A DNA stretch of 64,000 nt, taken from the IMG/VR virus record IMGVR_UViG_2925908680_000001, one strand, 5' to 3'. Shown one piece after another: positions 5,892-58,640 of this stretch. A program made the position numbers and the translations under genes. Every line of letters begins with the position of its first letter. Position 1 is the first letter of the stretch. This DNA is from a virus (lineage: Duplodnaviria > Heunggongvirae > Uroviricota > Caudoviricetes). Under the pieces are notes generated by a model. It was given only the letters and a program-made list of their open reading frames with translations. It was not told the DNA's origin and made no database searches.

Positions 5892-6425
5892 ATGCAGCAT
5901 TTAAAAAACATCAGATCAGGTAATCCAAAAACTGTTGAACAATATGAATTGACGCGACAATTTGGTGTTGTCTGGTTGTATTCTGAAGACGGTAAAAACT
6001 GGTATGAGGAACAAAAGAACTTCCAGGATGACACTATAAAAATTGCTTACACATCAGATGGAATTATTGTGGCTATAAATAAAGACGTATCTACAATAAA
6101 TCCAGAAGGTTTAAGTGTGGTTGAGGTTGCTGACATTACTGCAAATCGCCGTGCTGACATTTCTGGTAAATGGATGTTCAAAGATGGCGTAGTGATAAAG
6201 CGAACTTATACCGAGGAAGAACAGAGGCAACAAGCTGAAAATGAAAAGCAAAGCCTATTGCAACTTGTCAGGGATAAAACCCAACTATGGGACTCACAGC
6301 TACGGCTGGGCATCATTTCCGATGAGAATAAACAGAAATTAACCGCGTGGATGCTATATGCGCAGAAAGTAGAATCTACAGATACCTCCATCCTGCCAGT
6401 AACGTTTCCCGAACAACCAGAATGA
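5892..6425 (+). CDS. tail fibre assembly chaperone (Tfa/U-like)
   Basis: 177 aa; N-terminal [21 protein letters not shown]... and conserved GKWMFKDG motif of Mu/P1/P2 Tfa family. Confidence 0.85.
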
Positions 6426-6982: not shown

Positions 6983-8844
6983 TTAAACGCTCGCTACATT
7001 ATACCAGGTGCCATTTATATACTTTTGAACGGGTCTGTAATAAACACCAGCAATATTATCGGCGGAGTTGGAACCTGTATCCTGAACATTTATACCAGAC
7101 AATACATGACCTGAAGGACACTGGAAATTCCATGTTTGCCAGTTGTTTACACCATAATATTGCTGTGAGCCAAGCCGAACATCCTTTACATATCGGGAAT
7201 CAATGTTACCCCAGTTGCTTGGTTGTATCTGACCGTTTACAGCAAATGTCACCGAGTTATCTGTATTTCGCTGACTATAGAAATGCCAGCCTGAATCATC
7301 ACCAAGCTCTGCAACAGTTGGTCTTGACGAATTTCCCCACAAGTTAAATGATGCATTACGGGCAGCTGTATTTGAGCTTGAAAGTGTGAATAACTTACTT
7401 TCCCCAGTCTGAATACCCTTTAATGATATTGCTGAACCATTTCTAAAGCGGAATACATGCACACCATTAGCATAAGCATCCAGCACCCCATCACCATTTT
7501 GTTTAAACCCGGTATCGTTATCTCCTAAAACTATTGAATTGCCACCCAGGGCATTAGCCGTTCCAATCCCCAGATTTCCGCTAAAAATGGCATTAATACC
7601 GAATATTGAGTGAGAACAATAAAACCCTCGCCCATTGTTAAAATCAAGAATAGCTTGTGCGTTCGTGCTTTCTGTCGCGGGATTAGTTGCTCCCCACTTA
7701 TATGTTGTTTGACCGACGGTATAATCCTGAGTTGGAACAATAACCGTTAGCCCTTCTTCAGCAGAAACCCGCACAGGAAAAGCCCTGCCTTCAACGTAAA
7801 AAACGCTGCATACATCATCTTCTTTAAGGCTTGTTACAATGGAATGGATTGCGCGCTCATTAGTCTGATACGTCGAAAAATAACCTGCCGCATATGAACC
7901 ACGATCAGTCCAGCCACCAGGCATTACCATTCCATTGAATTCGCAGTTATTCATTTCGTAATTACCACCGGCAGATGTGGTCGTTATAATCACTCTGGAA
8001 GCCAGCTCGCCAGTGCTGCCTGTGGAACGCCGGAAAATAACTGGATACCACTTTCCACCAACTGCATTAGACGGCGCATTAAATGCGTACTGCCGCATTC
8101 CTTTTTTCTTATCCACTTCGCCTTTGCTGTAAACATTAATGTTACTCAGGAAGCGATCTTTATCAGGAATATCCGCGCCGTTCTGGTTTTTTTGCAATGA
8201 TCCAGCGGCTAATTCTACGGTTTGCTCAAGATTTAAATCTTCCGCCGTTAGCTCAATGTTTTTAGAACCATCAAACGAGACACCGTTAATAGTGCGCGCC
8301 GTCTGCAATCTGGTCGCCGTAGCAGCATTGCCGGAGGTATCCTGATCCCCTTTGGCATTGACGCCGGGAATTGAATCTTTTGACGTATAGACCTGCGCCC
8401 ATTCAGACCAGTTGGCAGAATCAGTATCCCGCCGCGAACGGATATGTACGGGCGCATGGGCACCGCTCGTGCCACTCCAGCCAATGAATAACTCACCTTC
8501 GCCAGCAGCGGTGGCACCTTTAAGGTGAAGCACATTGCCATAGGGGGAAGGGTAGCCATTGTTGTATGCCTCATACATCTGCAATCCAGTAGCAGCACCT
8601 TGCGTTGTACCGGTAAGCGCAGTAACGCGTCCTCTAGACGTAATTGTTGGTATCGAAATGTTCGTAGAACCATCGAACCTGACGCCATTAATGTTTATGG
8701 CTGTTTTCAATTTCGTCGCGGTGTCGGCATTCCCTGTCAGCGCCCCGGTGATCCCGCCGTTGAAAGTCTGGCGTGCACTCCATGTGTTAGCCGTGCTCAA
8801 CAGGGGGATCTTTTCACCGCTTGTTCCGAGTTCTCTTAAACCAA
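6983..8844 (-). CDS. alternative tail-fibre C-terminal segment (Sv'-like), promoterless in this orientation
   Basis: N-terminal 220 aa identical to residues of the + strand fibre encoded by the inverted repeat; unique 390-aa tip; ends with same INGTWYN motif. Confidence 0.8.
8165..8844. repeat. right ~680-bp inverted repeat of invertible segment
   Basis: Reverse complement of 4329-5008. Confidence 0.9.
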
Positions 8845-16452: not shown

Positions 16453-17463
16453 ATGCAATCACTGAATACTGTTACGGATCGCTTCTCCCTGGTAGAGAAA
16501 ATCCGCAAACACACACCGCAGAACAACCGAAATTACGTCATTCAGTCGGTACGAGACACATTCAACTCGCCAGAAACAAAAGAGCGTATCGCGCTGGGTG
16601 AGATGTATGGTTATTACGGTCATGGTCGCCGGGCGATGCACTATAACAAAACGAAAAGCCTGAACTTGCCGGAAGTCTCTGTTGTGATGGTAGATGGGAA
16701 GCCTGTTGTATTGGAGAACGTGCCGTCAAACAGGACTATCGACATTTCGATTGACGACAACGGCATTGTTACTCATACGCAGGAAATACTGGATACAGAC
16801 ACCGGGCGTATTGTTCAGGGCATGATTAATTCTGGTGCTGGTGGTTGGTCGTGGGCTACATCTGGTCCAGATTCATCGGTATCCCTGGTAAAGTCTTTCC
16901 ACGGCTTTGATTACGTAACTGTGCCTAACTATATCAGCCTCGACAAGAAAAGCCTGATGCTTGAATCAGCAGAAGAGCGCGATGCGGCTATTCATGCAGC
17001 ACTTATCGAACAAGGTTTTACCGATAACGCTGCTACGGATCTGGTTCACCACTTTTCAGCAATGAAAAATCAGCAAGCCATGCTCGAATCTGCACATCGT
17101 GAAGCCCTGGAATCAGAATTGATGCTCCTTGAAGTGGAAAACATACAGCTTCGAGATAAGCTGCGCGCTCAAACAGCGATGATGGAAAGCCAGGGGGAAA
17201 ATGCAAAGCAATGCCGCCGGATTTTGCGTGACGCTATCCAGGAAATGCCTGTTTTTATCAGCGCAGAACAGCGCCGGGCGCTCTGCCGTATGCAGTCTGA
17301 AGATGATGCCCGCATAGTGGCTGCGATGCTTGAATCTCTTGGGGCAAATGCTACTTATGGCTTACCGGTATCAGGCAAGAAAGAACCAGAGTTATCACCG
17401 AAGGAGAACAAAAACACCACCCCGTTACTCTTCGTTTCCAGAAGGGGGCAATCGCCTTGTTAA
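16453..17463 (+). CDS. putative head maturation protease/scaffold
   Basis: 336 aa with C-terminal coiled coil; position only. Confidence 0.25.
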   Translation: MQSLNTVTDRFSLVEKIRKHTPQNNRNYVIQSVRDTFNSPETKERIALGEMYGYYGHGRRAMHYNKTKSLNLPEVSVVMVDGKPVVLENVPSNRTIDISIDDNGIVTHTQEILDTDTGRIVQGMINSGAGGWSWATSGPDSSVSLVKSFHGFDYVTVPNYISLDKKSLMLESAEERDAAIHAALIEQGFTDNAATDLVHHFSAMKNQQAMLESAHREALESELMLLEVENIQLRDKLRAQTAMMESQGENAKQCRRILRDAIQEMPVFISAEQRRALCRMQSEDDARIVAAMLESLGANATYGLPVSGKKEPELSPKENKNTTPLLFVSRRGQSPC

Positions 17464-18677: not shown

Positions 18678-18879
18678 ATTAATTTGCTGTTTCTAAATCG
18701 GAATGTATGATCTGCATCATCGACAGAAGTCATCCATTGCTGAAATTTTTAGTTGATCTTCCATGTTTTCAGGCTTATATTCATGCCGTCGTAGCAAATT
18801 CTGCGACCAGGTTTGACAGCCTGAATGTTAGTGCGGACAACCGCAGATTTCCGATATTGCGGTATTTTTGTGTCCGTAA

Positions 18880-19020
18880 ACCGCGTTACGCCCGAATTAT
18901 GGTGGGGCGTGATGGGGAGGCTTCGGCCTGCTGGTTTCACTAACGCCAGTCTGTCAACCCTGTCACGTCCTGCCACCTGTTTGACAGCGGGTAGCAGGTT
19001 GTTAAACCTGTTAGTGAGGC
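18880..19020 (+). ncRNA. candidate C4-type antisense RNA / structured leader upstream of icd-like gene
   Basis: GC-rich hairpins in leader, position equivalent to P1 c4; not verified by covariance model. Confidence 0.3.
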
Positions 19021-44222: not shown

Positions 44223-44603
44223 TCAAGTCTTGGAACCATATAGTTCACGTAGCTTTTCTGCGACTGAAGATACGGCGATTTCACCAGTCGCAGCCCCTAC
44301 AGTAAGGTCTGCCAGTTCAGGTGAATCAAATACCTGCACCCCGTTACGGCGTAGAAATAGCAGCGCACTGTTTAGCGCGGTACGCTTATTGGCATCATTG
44401 AATATATGCCCTCTCGCTGTAGCCACCAGGTAGGTGGCGGAGACTTCGAAAAGGTCGGTGATCTCTTCGTAGGCAACTCTGGCCTGAACTCTCCCGATAA
44501 TGGCCTCTGCCCTGCCCGGATCTGACATGCCAGGCAGGCCGCCGTAGCGGCTTATATTCGCATCATGAAGCGCAATAAGTTCTTCCGGTGATATATGCCT
44601 CAT
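44223..44603 (-). CDS. doc: Doc toxin (Fic-family kinase)
   Basis: 126 aa; [22 protein letters not shown]...[10 protein letters not shown] Fic motif; TAATG coupling to phd. Confidence 0.95.
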
Positions 44604-44824
44604 TATCGGTTAACCAGTTCCTTGTTGGTGGAGTCCAGGGTGTCAAACAGGGATGCAAATTCAGCATCCAGCGCCGCTTTTTTGTAGGCTTCGAAAGTAG
44701 ACTTGCTGACAATTACTGCTGGCTCACGGCCTCTGCGGGTGATTTCAACCTCTTCCCCGGCTTCAACATTGTTGAGCACTTCAGAAAGGTTGCCGCGCGC
44801 GGTACGGAAGTTAATGGATTGCAT
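44603..44824 (-). CDS. phd: Phd antitoxin
   Basis: [39 protein letters not shown]; ORF track start 44830 is likely 2 codons too long. Confidence 0.9.
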
Positions 44825-44896
44825 AAACACCTCGTGTACTCGTTATGTGTACACAATTATAAACCTCACAGGCATAAAGCACCAGCCCTTTGCAGC

Positions 44897-45286
44897 TTAA
44901 ATAACCGGACAATCATCAAACTCCCCAATTCGGGCATCATTGATGACATGAGTGATCACACCAAAAACAGCATTACTGCCCGTGCATCCATCGTCATCTA
45001 CTGGTAACGCCTCTTTCTTCCCGGTGCTTAAATCCTCCAGGTGCTGGCGCGGATACTTCCTGTATCTCTTTATGCGATATTCACCCTCCATAGCGCAGAC
45101 AAGTAGCGAACCATCAACCGGAGTAAGTGAGGAATCGACCACCAGCAAAGCACCCTGCAATATTCCCTCACGGTGATGGCTATCAGCTGCCCGCATGAAG
45201 TAGGTTGCTGATGGATGCCTGATTAGTTGCTGATCAAGAGAAATTCGGCTTTCAACATAATCCGCCGCAGGAGAAGGGAAGCCCAT
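44897..45286 (-). CDS. humD: UmuD-like protein HumD (S24 LexA-type peptidase domain)
   Basis: 129 aa; S24 peptidase fold motifs; LexA box in promoter. Confidence 0.85.
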   Translation of the reverse strand: MGFPSPAADYVESRISLDQQLIRHPSATYFMRAADSHHREGILQGALLVVDSSLTPVDGSLLVCAMEGEYRIKRYRKYPRQHLEDLSTGKKEALPVDDDGCTGSNAVFGVITHVINDARIGEFDDCPVI

Positions 45287-53612: not shown

Positions 53613-53621
53613 TGTTAGAAA
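53613..53621 (+). promoter_or_regulatory. operator-like TGTTAGAAA with inverted partner TCTAACA at 53636-53642
   Basis: Dispersed motif family; inside leftward operon gap. Confidence 0.55.
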
Positions 53622-53674
53622 ATTAAAATCAACAATCTAACACGATTTTGAGCGCGTAAACGATGTAACCCGGC

Positions 53675-54358
53675 TTACGGTTGCCCTCCCTTCACCTGCA
53701 TTAGCGTCAGGTTTCCGCAAAATACAGCACCAGTATCGATATAATGCTGGTTCCAGAATGCTTTTGGGCTTTTAGCCGGGGTGTGTCCGAAGATAAAGCG
53801 ATCTGCACCTGTAATTTCTTCACCGATGCCATCTATCGAATCACTAACACGGTCGCGCGACCAGATGACATTGAAAAGCGGCACAGCCTTACCGAACTGA
53901 TACTCTCTATCCGGATAGTCAGCATGAGCAATGACAATAGTCTCCTGCCCGGTGTTCAGCTCAATGATATGAGGCAATTGCCTTACCAGCTCCACCAGCG
54001 CCCTGGCTAAAACTTCCTTATCACTATCCAGCATAAAGAACCACTGGCCGCCATTCATTAGCCAGTTATTCACGTTTCCAGCTGGGCTTAACGCATCGAT
54101 CATCAACCGCTCATGGTTACCCATGACAGCCCGGAACCAGGGCATCTGCAATAACTCCAGGCATTCGACATTTTCAGTACCGCGATCGATAAGGTCGCCG
54201 ACTGATATCAGTAAATCCTGCGCCGGGTCAAAATCCACACGATGGAGTTCATTCATAAGCAGGGTGTAGCAACCGTGCAAATCACCAACAACCCATATGT
54301 TTCTGTATCCTGAACCATCAATACGGCTATATAACGCCTGGTCGTTAACGGTGATCAT
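53675..54358 (-). CDS. Ser/Thr protein phosphatase (lambda PPase-like metallophosphatase)
   Basis: GDLHG, GDLIDRG, GNHE motifs. Confidence 0.85.
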
Positions 54359-54582
54359 TCTGCAACATCCTCCAAATCAGCAACCGCGTCCATCACATCA
54401 GAACCTCGAATAACTTCAAAAGCGCGGCAGGCCATTTGAAATACCTGTTGTTCTTGCGGGTGCGGAGACTCCCAATATTTGAAGCCTGGGCGATGCGTGT
54501 ACCCCATCATGGAATAAAAATCGCCAGCAAGTTCAATCGCGGCATCAACAAGTTCGCGATTAGTCATTCGCTTTGCTGCCAT
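54355..54582 (-). CDS. hypothetical protein
   Basis: 75 aa, ATGA overlap. Confidence 0.35.
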
Positions 54583-54853
54583 TTGCTTTCTCCTGTCGGA
54601 ACATCACGATCATCAGGTCACCTTTTGTCGCTATCCTGGCTGTTGTGCCAGGCTCAATGCGGCTAAGTTCAAATGCGTCATAGAACGCCTCTAACGCTTT
54701 CTGGCGTATCTCCTGTTTGCGGCGCTTTCCCCACTGCTTTAGAAAAACAGAGGCCGCCCACTTCCCCGCACTGAACATGATGTAAAACCAACCGAGCAGG
54801 GCCAAACCTGTGTTGAGGGCCGTATCGATCGTTATCGTGGTGTCGATATTCAC
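54560..54853 (-). CDS. small membrane protein
   Basis: 97 aa with TM helix. Confidence 0.35.
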   Translation of the reverse strand: MNIDTTITIDTALNTGLALLGWFYIMFSAGKWAASVFLKQWGKRRKQEIRQKALEAFYDAFELSRIEPGTTARIATKGDLMIVMFRQEKANGSKAND

Positions 54854-55098
54854 TGTGGTGGCTCCTGCTTTTCTGCCTTCAATACCATGCGCGAACCATC
54901 ATCCAGCTCCCAATTAATTTCACCGCCTTCTTCCATGACCAGATGCCAGACGAGTTGAGCGGCCTCGTTGGTTACATCACGACCGCGATCATTGCCAACA
55001 CGACGTTTTGTTCCATCCCCTAAGTCACGCATTTTTGCCAACACGATGGTTTTTGATAGCGGTGAAAAACCAAGCTGTAGTCGTGCTGAATTGCTCAC
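54850..55098 (-). CDS. hypothetical protein
   Basis: 82 aa ORF. Confidence 0.35.
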   Translation of the reverse strand: MSNSARLQLGFSPLSKTIVLAKMRDLGDGTKRRVGNDRGRDVTNEAAQLVWHLVMEEGGEINWELDDGSRMVLKAEKQEPPQ

Positions 55099-55757
55099 TG
55101 TTTCCCTCCCTTGCGAAGCTCTGCGGCAAAGTCAGTGGCATGTTCACCGAGTAGCTTCCAGTTATCGCGTATATCAGATGCAAATGACTGTTCAGATTTT
55201 GAGTTACATTTCTGTGCAAACATCTCCAATCCCTGCGCCCGGACTTCAGCCAGGAAAGCGTCGGTGGTTGGAGTCCCTTCAACCTTCAGCCCTATAGGGG
55301 CCAGGTAATACTTCAGCCCCGCATTCTCCGCCGCCAGCGACGCGCAATTACCCTCCAGCTCTGCAATGCGCTGTTTTGCAGCATCAAGTTCAATCGATAA
55401 TTTTTCCAACTGCTCTTTATGCTTCTTGTATTCCTGATATGCGTGCCAGGACTGACCTTTGCGCACACTATCAGTAATATCAGTAATCTGTTCTGGTGTT
55501 AGCGTGGTTAGTGGCTGTGCTGGGAAAATCAGCACTTTCCCGGAATCCCAATCAAAACCAGCGTGAATTGACTGAACCTCAACTGAGGGTGTTGAACCAA
55601 TGCTGCCAGGCGAATGAACAACGATCGTTACATCCATATCGCGACGATGGCTGTGGTTGTTGGACAAAATACGATTCACCAACTCAGAAAATTTGGAAAA
55701 TTTCATGCTGATTCCCTTTGCTCTTCCTGGATAATATTGTTGCAATCTTTCACGCAC
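55095..55757 (-). CDS. Ea22-like coiled-coil protein
   Basis: C-terminal [14 protein letters not shown] shared with 51050..51643. Confidence 0.5.
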
Positions 55758-56065
55758 TCGTTGCAGATGAAAACGTTGTCCCCGGCAATTAACTTTTTAA
55801 CGGTGTGCTGGGATTTGTTGCAGAAGCTGCAATAAAGCGTTGGACTGGCTGATACGGATTGTGCGCCAGATGTCAGCCGCGCGATGTCGTTCTTGCGACG
55901 CAATATCACACGGCTGCACTCGACCAGCATCTCCGGGGATATCTTCTCCTCCGTAGCGAGCGTTTCTAATCGTTCGAGTATGTGGAAGGCTTTTTCCTGG
56001 GTAATCCTGGGTAATTCAGCGTTACGCTCTGCCAGTTGTGCGGGCGTTAAACCTTCAGACTTCAT
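55703..56065 (-). CDS. protein with ClpX-type C4 zinc-binding domain
   Basis: [32 protein letters not shown] closely resembles ClpX N-terminal ZBD. Confidence 0.55.
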
Positions 56066-56372
56066 ACACTCTCCTTTCGAAATAAACGTACTGATTAATC
56101 ATGCCCAGGGGCATTTCGAGTTTTTCCGCGATCTCACGGCGGGGAACACCACACTGATGAAGCTGCCGTGCCAGTTCTATATCGCTCTGCCGGTATTTGG
56201 CTGACGGATGAAAGTCTCCTTTCAGAATCATGCTGATCCCCAGCTCCCGCGCTTTAGTCCTGACGGCATCACCGGTACGACCGATCAGCTTCCCAATACT
56301 CTCTACCGTCATAGTTCCGGCGCACTGGCGGAGTATCATGATTTCTGCCCTTCCCCATCCCCGCCAGCTCAC
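56055..56372 (-). CDS. small HTH-like protein
   Basis: 105 aa; two helix-turn-helix-like segments. Confidence 0.35.
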
Positions 56373-56992
56373 GCCGACATCCTCTGAGACATAAACTCCA
56401 CAAAACGAACTGCATCTTCAGAAACAACGCCGCATGACTTCAGATAATTCATTGCGTCATCAGGTAGCGGATTAGTTGGTTCGGCATTTGCCAGGGATTG
56501 AGATAAACGCGTGATTAATTTGACCATTCTCCGCTGCCGGAGGTTGTATCCTTCAGCTAAAGACAGGTAACTGGAAAGGGTATTGCTTAAGCGGGCGCGA
56601 AGCTGATCCGTGCCGTGACATTCAATAGCAACATCACGTAACGCATCGACCAGTTCACGGTAAAGATGCGCTGCCATTCTGCAATCTGTGTCAGATGGTG
56701 CTTCATAAATTACCGTCAACCCCAGTTTTTCAGCCAGAGCGTGTTCTGCACGTGCTCCTGCGGACACATCCCATCCCTTAAGCAGATAGATCGCATCAGC
56801 AGAACGCACCATTGCCAGGCAAATATCCATGTATTCACTCTGACAAAGGCCACCAGGTAACACAGCTGGATTCAGAACGATATGCCCTTCAGCCATCAGC
56901 TCGCTCGCTTTCGCATTAAACGCCGCACGGTTGTAATCTGGATAACCAGTCATCGGCCCCGCGATGTAAATTTTCAAAACACGTTTCACCAT
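56369..56992 (-). CDS. DUF4406 / nucleoside 2-deoxyribosyltransferase-like domain protein
   Basis: IYIAGPMTG...W..S.GA..E N-terminal pattern; start at M10 coupled (TGATG) to upstream small ORF. Confidence 0.45.
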   Translation of the reverse strand: MVKRVLKIYIAGPMTGYPDYNRAAFNAKASELMAEGHIVLNPAVLPGGLCQSEYMDICLAMVRSADAIYLLKGWDVSAGARAEHALAEKLGLTVIYEAPSDTDCRMAAHLYRELVDALRDVAIECHGTDQLRARLSNTLSSYLSLAEGYNLRQRRMVKLITRLSQSLANAEPTNPLPDDAMNYLKSCGVVSEDAVRFVEFMSQRMSA

Positions 56993-57148
56993 CAAAATTT
57001 CCCCAAAATCGTGACGCAAAACATAAGCACTGCGAAAAGCTCAATACCAAGCTCAAGTAGCGCCAACGCCCCGAAAAACAACACATAGAACAGGCCAATC
57101 TCATTCACAGATGGCTGGTGGATCGCACTTAAAGCTATAAGCATCATG
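56992..57148 (-). CDS. 51-aa hydrophobic peptide, first gene of leftward operon
   Basis: GGAGGA SD before ATGATG; MMLIALSAIHQPSVNEIGLFYVLFFGALALLELGIELFAVLMFCVTILGKF; below ORF-track size cutoff. Confidence 0.4.
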
Positions 57149-57186
57149 TCCTCCAAACAGTTATCAGGAATGATATTAATGTTTTG

Positions 57187-57195
57187 TGTTAGAAA
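57187..57195 (+). promoter_or_regulatory. operator-like TGTTAGAAA in divergent promoter region
   Basis: Between leftward operon start and ref-like gene. Confidence 0.55.
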
Positions 57196-57264
57196 ATCAA
57201 TTTTGAATATCTAATCATTTTGATCAATCATAGAAAAATCGCTGAAAAGTAAGAGGCAGCCATC

Positions 57265-57843
57265 ATGCAGAAACAGAGCTATTGGGAGAAACAGAGACAA
57301 AAAGCCATGCAAAAATTGGCTGACCCAGCCTGGCGAGAGGAACAAAGGGCAAAGCGCCTTCAACAAGCTCAACGCCAGCAGCAGCGAGCGAGAGAAAAAG
57401 CCGCATCGCCTGAATATCGGCAAAAGAAAATTGAAAAAGCAAAGCAATATGAACAGCGGAGAAAAGATAAAGCTGTATCCGCTCCGTCCAAAAAAACACG
57501 CACGTCACGCGGCCTGAAAGGCAGATCACTCACAGCCGATGAACGCCGGATACAGACCGCTATCGGTGCTCTCCCCTGCATTGCCTGCCATATTCACGGG
57601 CAACATAGCCCAGTGGTATCCCTGCACCATATCTTCGGGAGAACGGCAGAGAACGCACATAGATATGTCCTCCCTTTGTGTAAATGGCACCACCAGTACG
57701 CAGCGCCAGCCGAGGTCCGAGAACAATATCCCTGGCTGGTCCCTGTTCATGCTGACGGAAAAATAGGCGGAAAAGCAGATTTCATGCGGCACAATGCCGA
57801 TGAAATGACGTTGTATCAGATGGCGATTGAATTGATAAATTAG
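57265..57843 (+). CDS. Ref-like HNH endonuclease (recombination enhancement function family)
   Basis: 192 aa; Lys/Arg/Gln-rich N-terminal 90 aa then CIACHIHGQH...HHIFG...LCKWHH HNH core. Confidence 0.6.
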   Translation: MQKQSYWEKQRQKAMQKLADPAWREEQRAKRLQQAQRQQQRAREKAASPEYRQKKIEKAKQYEQRRKDKAVSAPSKKTRTSRGLKGRSLTADERRIQTAIGALPCIACHIHGQHSPVVSLHHIFGRTAENAHRYVLPLCKWHHQYAAPAEVREQYPWLVPVHADGKIGGKADFMRHNADEMTLYQMAIELIN

Positions 57844-58341: not shown

Positions 58342-58446
58342 AAATACTGACTGTTGCGCCCTGGCATTATCGTGGGGTATATTTCTACGGCACCTTAGAA
58401 AAACGGGTGCCGGGATTGGAACCCCGGATAATGCAAAAGGCGACAC

Positions 58447-58470
58447 AGACGCCGAAAGCGTCTTTTTTTG
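58447..58470 (+). terminator. rho-independent terminator agacgc-cgaaa-gcgtct + TTTTTTT
   Basis: Classic. Confidence 0.85.
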
Positions 58471-58499: not shown

Positions 58500-58640
58500 G
58501 TTTAGCTCAGAGATCAATGGTAGTGCTGGCTGGGCTGCCGAAAGGCAGGCCGGTTCCCTTTTGCGCCGGTAGTTCCAACCCAGTCAGTGCTACCGCCATT
58601 GAGATTGGAACCTCACGCGGTAGCTCCTTAAATTAGCAAA
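58500..58640 (+). ncRNA. candidate C4-type antisense RNA / structured leader upstream of second icd-like gene
   Basis: Multiple GC hairpins in 140-nt leader; position as P1 c4. Confidence 0.3.

Follow-up and report, generated by a model that had tools for sequence, protein, structure and literature searches.

The IMG/VR virus record IMGVR_UViG_2925908680_000001 (Caudoviricetes) was analysed over a stretch of 64,000 nucleotides, referred to here as the window, which by its sequence belongs to a phage-plasmid of about 91 kb that is D6-like and related to P1. A gene on the minus strand of the window encodes a 120-residue protein in which a predicted helical hairpin, specific to its family, is followed by a C-terminal zinc-binding domain (ZBD) of the type found in ClpX, with no unfoldase attached. 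The resemblance of this domain to that of ClpX is well beyond chance. Our tentative proposal, held with somewhat less than even confidence, is that the protein may act as a decoy or anti-adaptor for those adaptors or substrates of the ClpXP protease that depend on the ClpX ZBD. RefSeq, Pfam and PHROG already annotate the likeness in sequence, and it is the mechanism that would be the novelty. The gene and its parts are as follows.

55703..56065, minus strand: gene for the 120-residue protein with helical hairpin and ClpX-type ZBD, TGA stop at 55703-55705 (list of open reading frames)
56006..56065, minus strand: chimeric 20-residue leader, recombination junction at 56006-56015 (blastn and D6 translations)
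55850..56005, minus strand: family-specific N-terminal domain, residues 21-72, a predicted helical hairpin (helices 23-39 and 44-66) and then a low-confidence linker
55706..55840, minus strand: ClpX-type ZBD, residues 76-120 (BLASTP, PDB matches, Foldseek and invariant columns)
55829-55831, 55820-55822, 55763-55765 and 55754-55756, minus strand: zinc ligands C79, C82, C101 and C104, respectively

Sequence inspection places a strong Shine-Dalgarno sequence, AAGGAGAG, 5 nt ahead of the ATG, and RefSeq annotates the same 120-residue coding sequence in an E. coli plasmid 99.4% identical to the window, with the product name "ClpX C4-type zinc finger protein". An earlier reading of the DNA made from the letters alone (the original prediction) had described this open reading frame and a ClpX-type ZBD at its C-terminus, and both are borne out by the open reading frame list, the RefSeq coding sequence, Pfam, BLASTP, PDB matches and an AlphaFold2 (AF2) model.

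The Pfam family zf-C4_ClpX (PF06689, gathering cut-off 27 bits) matches residues 78-114 with 63.9 bits (E=1.2e-17), covering profile positions 2-39 of 39. The original prediction had suggested an alignment with ClpX as a check; by BLASTP, residues 77-120 pair with residues 13-56 of E. coli ClpX, with 30 of 44 positions identical (68%) and 37 similar (E=6e-20), and the best sequence matches in the PDB are structures of the isolated ZBD (1OVX and 2DS5, E about 1e-15). All 19 family members aligned have the four cysteines C79, C82, C101 and C104, which pair with ClpX C14, C17, C36 and C39, giving the same CxxC-x18-CxxC ligand spacing. The AF2 monomer model was built on a 19-sequence family alignment and has a mean predicted local distance difference test (pLDDT) score of 78. 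In this model the C-terminal module (pLDDT 79-89 across residues 81-120) adopts a treble-clef fold with a C-terminal helix, as in ClpX, and Foldseek superposes it on 2DS6 and 2DS8 with an rmsd of 0.6 A over 38-39 residues. The domain had been described as a zinc ribbon made of the last 32 residues; its assignment to the ClpX type holds, but its length does not, because such a cut drops the first CxxC knuckle, and the domain comprises the last ~44 residues.

In contrast to ClpX, where a linker and an AAA+ unfoldase follow the ZBD, the phage domain lies at the C-terminus of its protein, is preceded by the hairpin and is encoded on a mobile element. The ClpX equivalog models NCBIfam NF003745 and TIGR00382 are matched at positions 5-50 only, scoring 47.1 and 43.2 bits where the cut-offs are 359 and 370.75, and ClpX has about 420 residues compared to 120 here. 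The ZBD is free-standing, as had been proposed, insofar as it has no AAA+ module, but the protein is more than a mere free ZBD because its N-terminus is a conserved domain.

The surface that ClpX uses for docking is largely kept. Twenty-six distinct family ZBDs were compared column by column with 39 distinct ClpX N-terminal fragments. F16 of ClpX is present as the invariant F81, and the position of I46 is I or V in 23 of the 26 family ZBDs (I111 in the window protein). In ClpX these two residues form the hydrophobic pocket at which trigger factor, lambda O, SspB and RssB dock (PMC7804408). Further ClpX positions kept in the family, in addition to the zinc ligands, are L12, Y13, V24, L27-G30, V33, I35, V40 and I47.

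The N-terminus was earlier taken for an unrelated stretch of 85 residues. It is in fact 76 residues long, and residues 21-72 form the conserved hairpin while residues 1-20 are a recombinational leader. The hairpin is modelled with a pLDDT of 86-96 over residues 21-50, and in the 19-member alignment its near-invariant positions are E24, K25, R32, L33, E34, L36, A37, E40, I42, L47, L55, R56, R57, D60 and L64. A hairpin profile run against 1.84 billion representative proteins found 17 clusters only, all from this family; the full-length ones all have the hairpin followed by the ZBD, and the remainder are truncated or frameshifted fragments and three short proteins without a ZBD. No relatives of the hairpin were found in Pfam (one spurious BRCA-2_OB3 match, E=0.034) or in the PDB (best profile-search E=0.27), and Foldseek of the model against the PDB and BFVD matched the ZBD part alone.

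The leader sets the window protein apart from its nearest named relatives. Phage D6 orf93 (83% identity) and phage P88 gp19 (48.5% identity) share its family and architecture but have 106-110 residues and begin MTTSHSA.. or MQHIDRE..., whereas the window protein opens with 17 residues identical to those at the N-terminus of D6 orf91, an Ea22-C-terminal-like protein, and its remainder corresponds to orf93 from orf93 codon 8 on. By blastn, window positions 56016-57300 match D6 (L002) 7278-8550, reaching codon 17 of orf91, and positions 55721-56005 match D6 6001-6285, within orf93. About 1 kb of D6 DNA that separates these two blocks (the remainder of orf91, then orf92 and the opening codons of orf93) is missing here, and the gene of the window is therefore a recombinant that fuses the 5' end of an orf91-like gene to an orf93-like gene. 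The 120-residue form is common (176 member sequences in clusters P0001-P0004), and the usual length in the family is 105-112 residues.

What such a protein might do is suggested by work on ClpX itself. SspB, RssB and substrates that depend on the N-domain, lambda O among them, dock on the ClpX ZBD, and deletion of this domain abolishes the degradation of those clients but not that of ssrA-tagged proteins (PMC7226468; PMC7804408). The isolated ClpX ZBD, supplied in trans at 5-20 uM, inhibits RssB-mediated degradation of sigmaS by 0.6 uM ClpXP, and it cross-links to the RssB C-domain (PMC7226468). Of the two modes of action that the original prediction had offered, heterodimerisation with host ClpX and competition for adaptors and substrates, the second thus has a precedent in vitro. 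By analogy, the phage protein would accumulate once its operon is derepressed and would form ZBD-type dimers. The hairpin, joined to the motor-less ZBD by a flexible linker, may oligomerise these dimers further, allowing bivalent capture and avidity for dimeric adaptors, or it may provide a second specificity. The decoy would then soak up clients of the ClpX N-domain (SspB, RssB, UmuD-type tethers, and lambda-O- or MuA-like degrons), and ZBD-dependent degradation by ClpXP would be selectively lowered, with substrates recognised at the pore through ssrA-type C-terminal tags left unaffected. A general block of ClpXP is not expected, because pore-recognised degrons do not need the ZBD. The occurrence of the conserved N-domain almost solely in fusion with the ZBD points to selection for the architecture, and the spread of the family over unrelated temperate elements (124 plasmids and 453 IMG/VR contigs) is also consistent with a decoy.

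A broader form of this proposal, which we put forward with more caution as a possibility, is a viral "anti-adaptor by domain mimicry". Temperate enterobacterial phages and phage-plasmids would have captured the docking domain of ClpX and oligomerised it through the hairpin, and the product would titrate adaptors and N-domain-dependent degrons; clients such as Phd-type antitoxins, UmuD'/HumD, replication initiators or sigmaS would be stabilised, and ssrA-type quality control would remain intact. We speculate that possible beneficiaries encoded on the same element are the Phd antitoxin and the UmuD'-like protein HumD, whose genes adjoin one another in the window.

44223-44603, minus strand: doc, addiction module
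44603-44830, minus strand: phd, addiction module
44897-45286, minus strand: UmuD'-like S24 peptidase gene (HumD-like), adjoining phd-doc

ClpXP degrades Phd (Lehnherr & Yarmolinsky 1995, as cited in PMC4963847). UmuD and UmuD' are handled by ClpXP via the ZBD, and Phd and the UmuD'-like protein are possible clients of a ZBD protein.

Several observations weigh against the decoy proposal. Several positions that are near-invariant in ClpX differ in the family (G18 is replaced by N or K, E23 by A or T, P31 by D or E and L42 by V, A or D, with D107 here, and D45 is variable), so ligand specificity or dimerisation may differ from that of ClpX. The ratio of nonsynonymous to synonymous substitution rates (dN/dS) against close relatives is 0.34-0.75 pairwise in both modules, over 40-100 codons and with noise, which would fit selection that is relaxed or diversifying better than it fits strict mimicry; though below 1, the ratio is expected to lie well above the value for the strongly conserved host ClpX domain. 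High expression would be required, because ZBD-partner affinities are micromolar (PMC7226468). A pure decoy would not need a conserved N-domain, and this domain may hold a real activity. Furthermore, the CmdTAC defence is triggered by ClpXP-dependent loss of the CmdA antitoxin, which carries a C-terminal Ala-Ala degron, and a free ZBD would not block triggers of this kind.

The replacements at ClpX-invariant positions and the elevated dN/dS would also suit exaptation, in which the ClpX-derived treble-clef finger serves as a generic protein- or nucleic-acid-binding module, perhaps in a small regulator acting with its neighbours, and has no link to ClpXP. The adjacent genes encode a DNA-binding protein and Ea22-like proteins of unassigned function, and treble-clef fingers are said to be versatile binders. 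However, 68% identity to ClpX here, and about 80% in member P0021, is a great deal for an exapted fold, and conservation extends beyond the zinc scaffold to the F16/I46 docking pocket. Stand-alone ZBDs also occur in several other phage lineages. Basal members keep a host-like sequence: the more divergent members (P88 type, P0030, P0034, P0124, P0127 and P0135) retain GPSVYIC..DLCN, and for that reason the clade with D or E at position 31 looks derived. On this evidence we regard exaptation as rather unlikely. A recent capture from E. coli clpX was considered separately and is not supported, as the window ZBD has T11 and F34 against L and Y in E. coli ClpX, DNA similarity is undetectable and the basal members are the more host-like ones.

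That the N-domain is conserved and confined to this family implies a further binding role, and this raises an alternative in which the protein acts on ClpX directly as a hijacker or adaptor: its ZBD would pair with the N-domains of nascent ClpX or bind the AAA+ ring, and the hairpin would bring cargo, so that ClpX is re-targeted or poisoned. The adaptors SspB, RssB and trigger factor all act through the ZBD, and with the core residues of the domain kept, ZBD-ZBD pairing is conceivable. Yet L42 and P31 are replaced in the clade of the window protein, and no cargo partner is conserved beside the gene in three contexts inspected by eye. The ZBD dimer is reportedly constitutive and very stable; exchange with existing ClpX would then be improbable, and capture would be limited to nascent ClpX and slow on the time scale of a lytic cycle. 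We consider a hijacker unlikely.

The decoy proposal can be set beside known modulators of ClpXP. IraD, IraM and IraP, the anti-adaptors of RssB-ClpXP, have the outcome proposed here, in that small inducible proteins stop adaptor delivery and leave the motor untouched (PMC7226468). They differ in having unrelated folds, in binding RssB and in not copying a ClpX domain, and no search gave a sequence relation between them and the phage protein; the functional equivalence is one that we infer purely by analogy. Phages also encode modulators of host AAA+ proteases, namely PinA of T4 and Gp4.5 of T7, which act on Lon, and RexB of lambda, which acts on ClpXP. The concept is the same, as an early or accessory phage protein spares labile phage or antitoxin proteins. 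PinA, Gp4.5 and RexB are not known to contain a zinc finger or to imitate a protease domain, and none of the Ira anti-adaptors or phage protease modulators is known to mimic the protease's own docking domain.

Closer in kind are the stand-alone short ZBDs of other phages, found in phrog_12435 (annotated "protease"), phrog_5259 and a 65-residue "Clp protease" of Pseudomonas phage PP9W2. These are likewise phage-encoded free ClpX-type ZBDs without an ATPase, but they have 57-70 residues, no hairpin and about 38-40% identity. Two metagenomic proteins of 176 residues, P0031 and P0033, carry two tandem ClpX-type ZBDs per chain and then a Cys-rich tail; with this arrangement they may represent naturally occurring ZBD "dimers" in a single chain, with no ATPase. 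Full-text searching found no literature on stand-alone phage ZBD proteins or on the window protein and its family, phrog_6797, described below.

The window protein belongs to phrog_6797 over its full length (E=5.9e-54, residues 16-119 against profile positions 3-106 of 107), a family with no function assigned. Among E. coli matches to the gene, 144 of 150 are on plasmids, and 117 of the 124 plasmid records with a match are non-mobilizable, with sizes of about 90 or 110 kb. The words "leftward early operon" in the original prediction implied a lambdoid context, which is ruled out by the D6-like match and by this distribution. The family occurs in D6-like plasmids, in plasmids of about 108-111 kb and in P2-like prophages, and was absent from the lambdoid phages listed. 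Scanning IMG/VR with a pattern confirmed 453 contigs that encode a relative. In the ~108-kb phage records the ZBD gene has Ea22/EaA genes around it and a UmuD-like gene nearby. In P88 and other P2-like phages and prophages it comes after the gpA replication gene and a ParM/ParR pair and before the portal gene. Inspection by eye found no neighbouring gene common to the D6-like, ~108-111 kb plasmid and P2-like contexts, although an Ea22-like gene is often nearby.

The window allele is a demonstrable recombinant fusion in a patchwork of Ea22-like and DUF genes, and truncated or frameshifted copies of the family occur (P0123, P0126 and P0129-P0132). The gene could on these grounds be a functionless passenger, a by-product of mosaic recombination in a hypervariable accessory region that is kept by linkage. 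Against this, the two-domain architecture is intact from 27% to 99% identity across three unrelated phage backbones, dN/dS is below 1 in every computable pair, the zinc ligands and the pocket phenylalanine are invariant, and the gene has a good Shine-Dalgarno sequence and apparently coupled translation. A passenger is thus very unlikely.

In older GenBank and RefSeq records, many family members (P0001-P0027, D6 orf93 and P88 gp19) bear the name "carboxylate--amine ligase". This name was rejected, as no ATP-grasp or GCS2-type domain was found in Pfam or NCBIfam even at E<=1 and the proteins are too small; more recent PGAP records replace it by "ClpX C4-type zinc finger protein". The family is common, in about 124 plasmids and 453 viral contigs, so a known function would annotate many genes that are currently mislabelled. 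If the decoy proposal is true, the virus would have a simple means of editing the substrate list of a host protease instead of switching the protease off, and the ClpXP-sensitive cargo of the phage-plasmid (Phd/Doc addiction and the UmuD'-like HumD) would be linked to a self-encoded protector. The protein would also be a genetically encodable inhibitor of N-domain-dependent ClpXP degradation, usable as a tool. If the proposal is wrong, the protein merely adds to the many small accessory proteins, its zinc finger being a borrowed one.

Nine leftward genes, which overlap or abut one another, run from 57144 to 53675, divergent from ref (57265-57843), and the ZBD gene is the fourth of them; the leftward operon proposed originally is evident from this arrangement. 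The other eight genes are listed below.

56992..57144, minus strand: first gene, 50-residue hydrophobic protein, homologue of D6 orf88 (phrog_8890, E=3e-35, alignment beginning at residue 5 of the open reading frame as listed; D6 annotation)
56369..56992, minus strand: second gene, DUF4406 or nucleoside 2-deoxyribosyltransferase-like protein (Pfam DUF4406, E=8.4e-34; phrog_355, phrog_5781)
56055..56372, minus strand: third gene, 105-residue DNA-binding protein (phrog_323 transcriptional regulator, E=6.7e-28; RefSeq "DNA-binding protein")
55095..55706, minus strand: fifth gene, Ea22-like protein (phrog_368, phrog_6026; the RefSeq coding sequence begins 4 nt before the ZBD stop)
54850-55098, minus strand: sixth gene, DUF7446 protein (Pfam, PHROGs)
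54560-54853, minus strand: seventh gene, DUF4752 protein (Pfam, PHROGs)
54355-54582, minus strand: eighth gene, 75-residue open reading frame (list of open reading frames)
53675-54358, minus strand: ninth gene, Ppp/NinI-like Ser/Thr phosphatase (Pfam, PHROGs)

The start of the ZBD gene overlaps the gene for the 105-residue DNA-binding protein by 11 nt. At its other end, the ATG of the Ea22-like gene (55706-55704) overlaps the ZBD stop as ATGA, suggesting translational coupling of the two genes; the true start of the Ea22-like gene is this ATG at 55706 rather than the GTG at 55757. Patches of the Ea22-like gene, which lies 3' of the ZBD gene, match D6 orf91 and orf92 (L002 6306-7327), two genes that are upstream of the ZBD gene in D6, and on this comparison the accessory array has been reshuffled between the window and D6. 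Defence-system models (PADLOC-DB) searched with eight operon proteins at E<=0.01 gave no families.

The operon had also been described as operator-controlled, and at the level of motifs this is a fair description. An asymmetric 17-bp motif, TGTTAGAAAWYTAAWTT, picked out de novo as a repeat, has ten matches in the window against 0.09 expected, mostly intergenic, with starts at 17462, 18669, 29614, 30863, 35019, 39452, 40862, 53613, 57187 and 57837. The two copies that flank the operon are the following.

57187..57203, plus strand: operator-like 17-mer TGTTAGAAAATCAATTT, in the intergenic region between ref and the leftward operon
53613-53629: second operator-like site, beyond the phosphatase gene (motif search)

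D6 and NZ_CP122910 have the motif at three of the same places as the window, namely between ref and the operon, where ref ends, and between ppp and pdcB; operator control is reasonable because the motif is repeated in the window and is placed in the same three positions in D6. The copy at 57187-57203 overlaps the -35 element of a candidate minus-strand promoter consisting of TTGATT (57200-57195), 16 nt and TAATAT (57178-57173), which was read by inspection and, at 8/12, falls under the threshold of the promoter scan. The P1 C1 operator consensus ATTGCTCTAATAAATTT was also tried as the operator and gave no matches in the window at up to 3 mismatches. The 17-bp motif is probably the operator of a D6-type C1 repressor, distinct from the P1 operator consensus. 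The site at 57187-57203 could equally serve the divergent ref gene, and expression of the operon early in infection is something we infer from the operator motif alone.

The P2-like carriers of the ZBD gene hold a gene for a ParM/StbA-type actin-like ATPase together with a ParR-like (Plasmid_stab_B) gene (L003 2662-3937; L006-L009 4439-5714). A plasmid partition module is unexpected in an integrating phage family. The window itself has a C4 antisense-RNA locus at 58513-58600 on the plus strand, upstream of icd/ant and accompanied by an isrK-like RNA at 58390-58468, and a second C4 antisense-RNA locus at 18895-18980 on the plus strand, for which there is a separate a1b1 target element at 18775-18827. 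Compared with P1, it is unusual for one element to have two immI-type modules. Five tRNA genes (Arg-tct, Tyr-gta, Thr-tgt, Ser-tga and Met-cat) are clustered at 32097-33583 on the plus strand.

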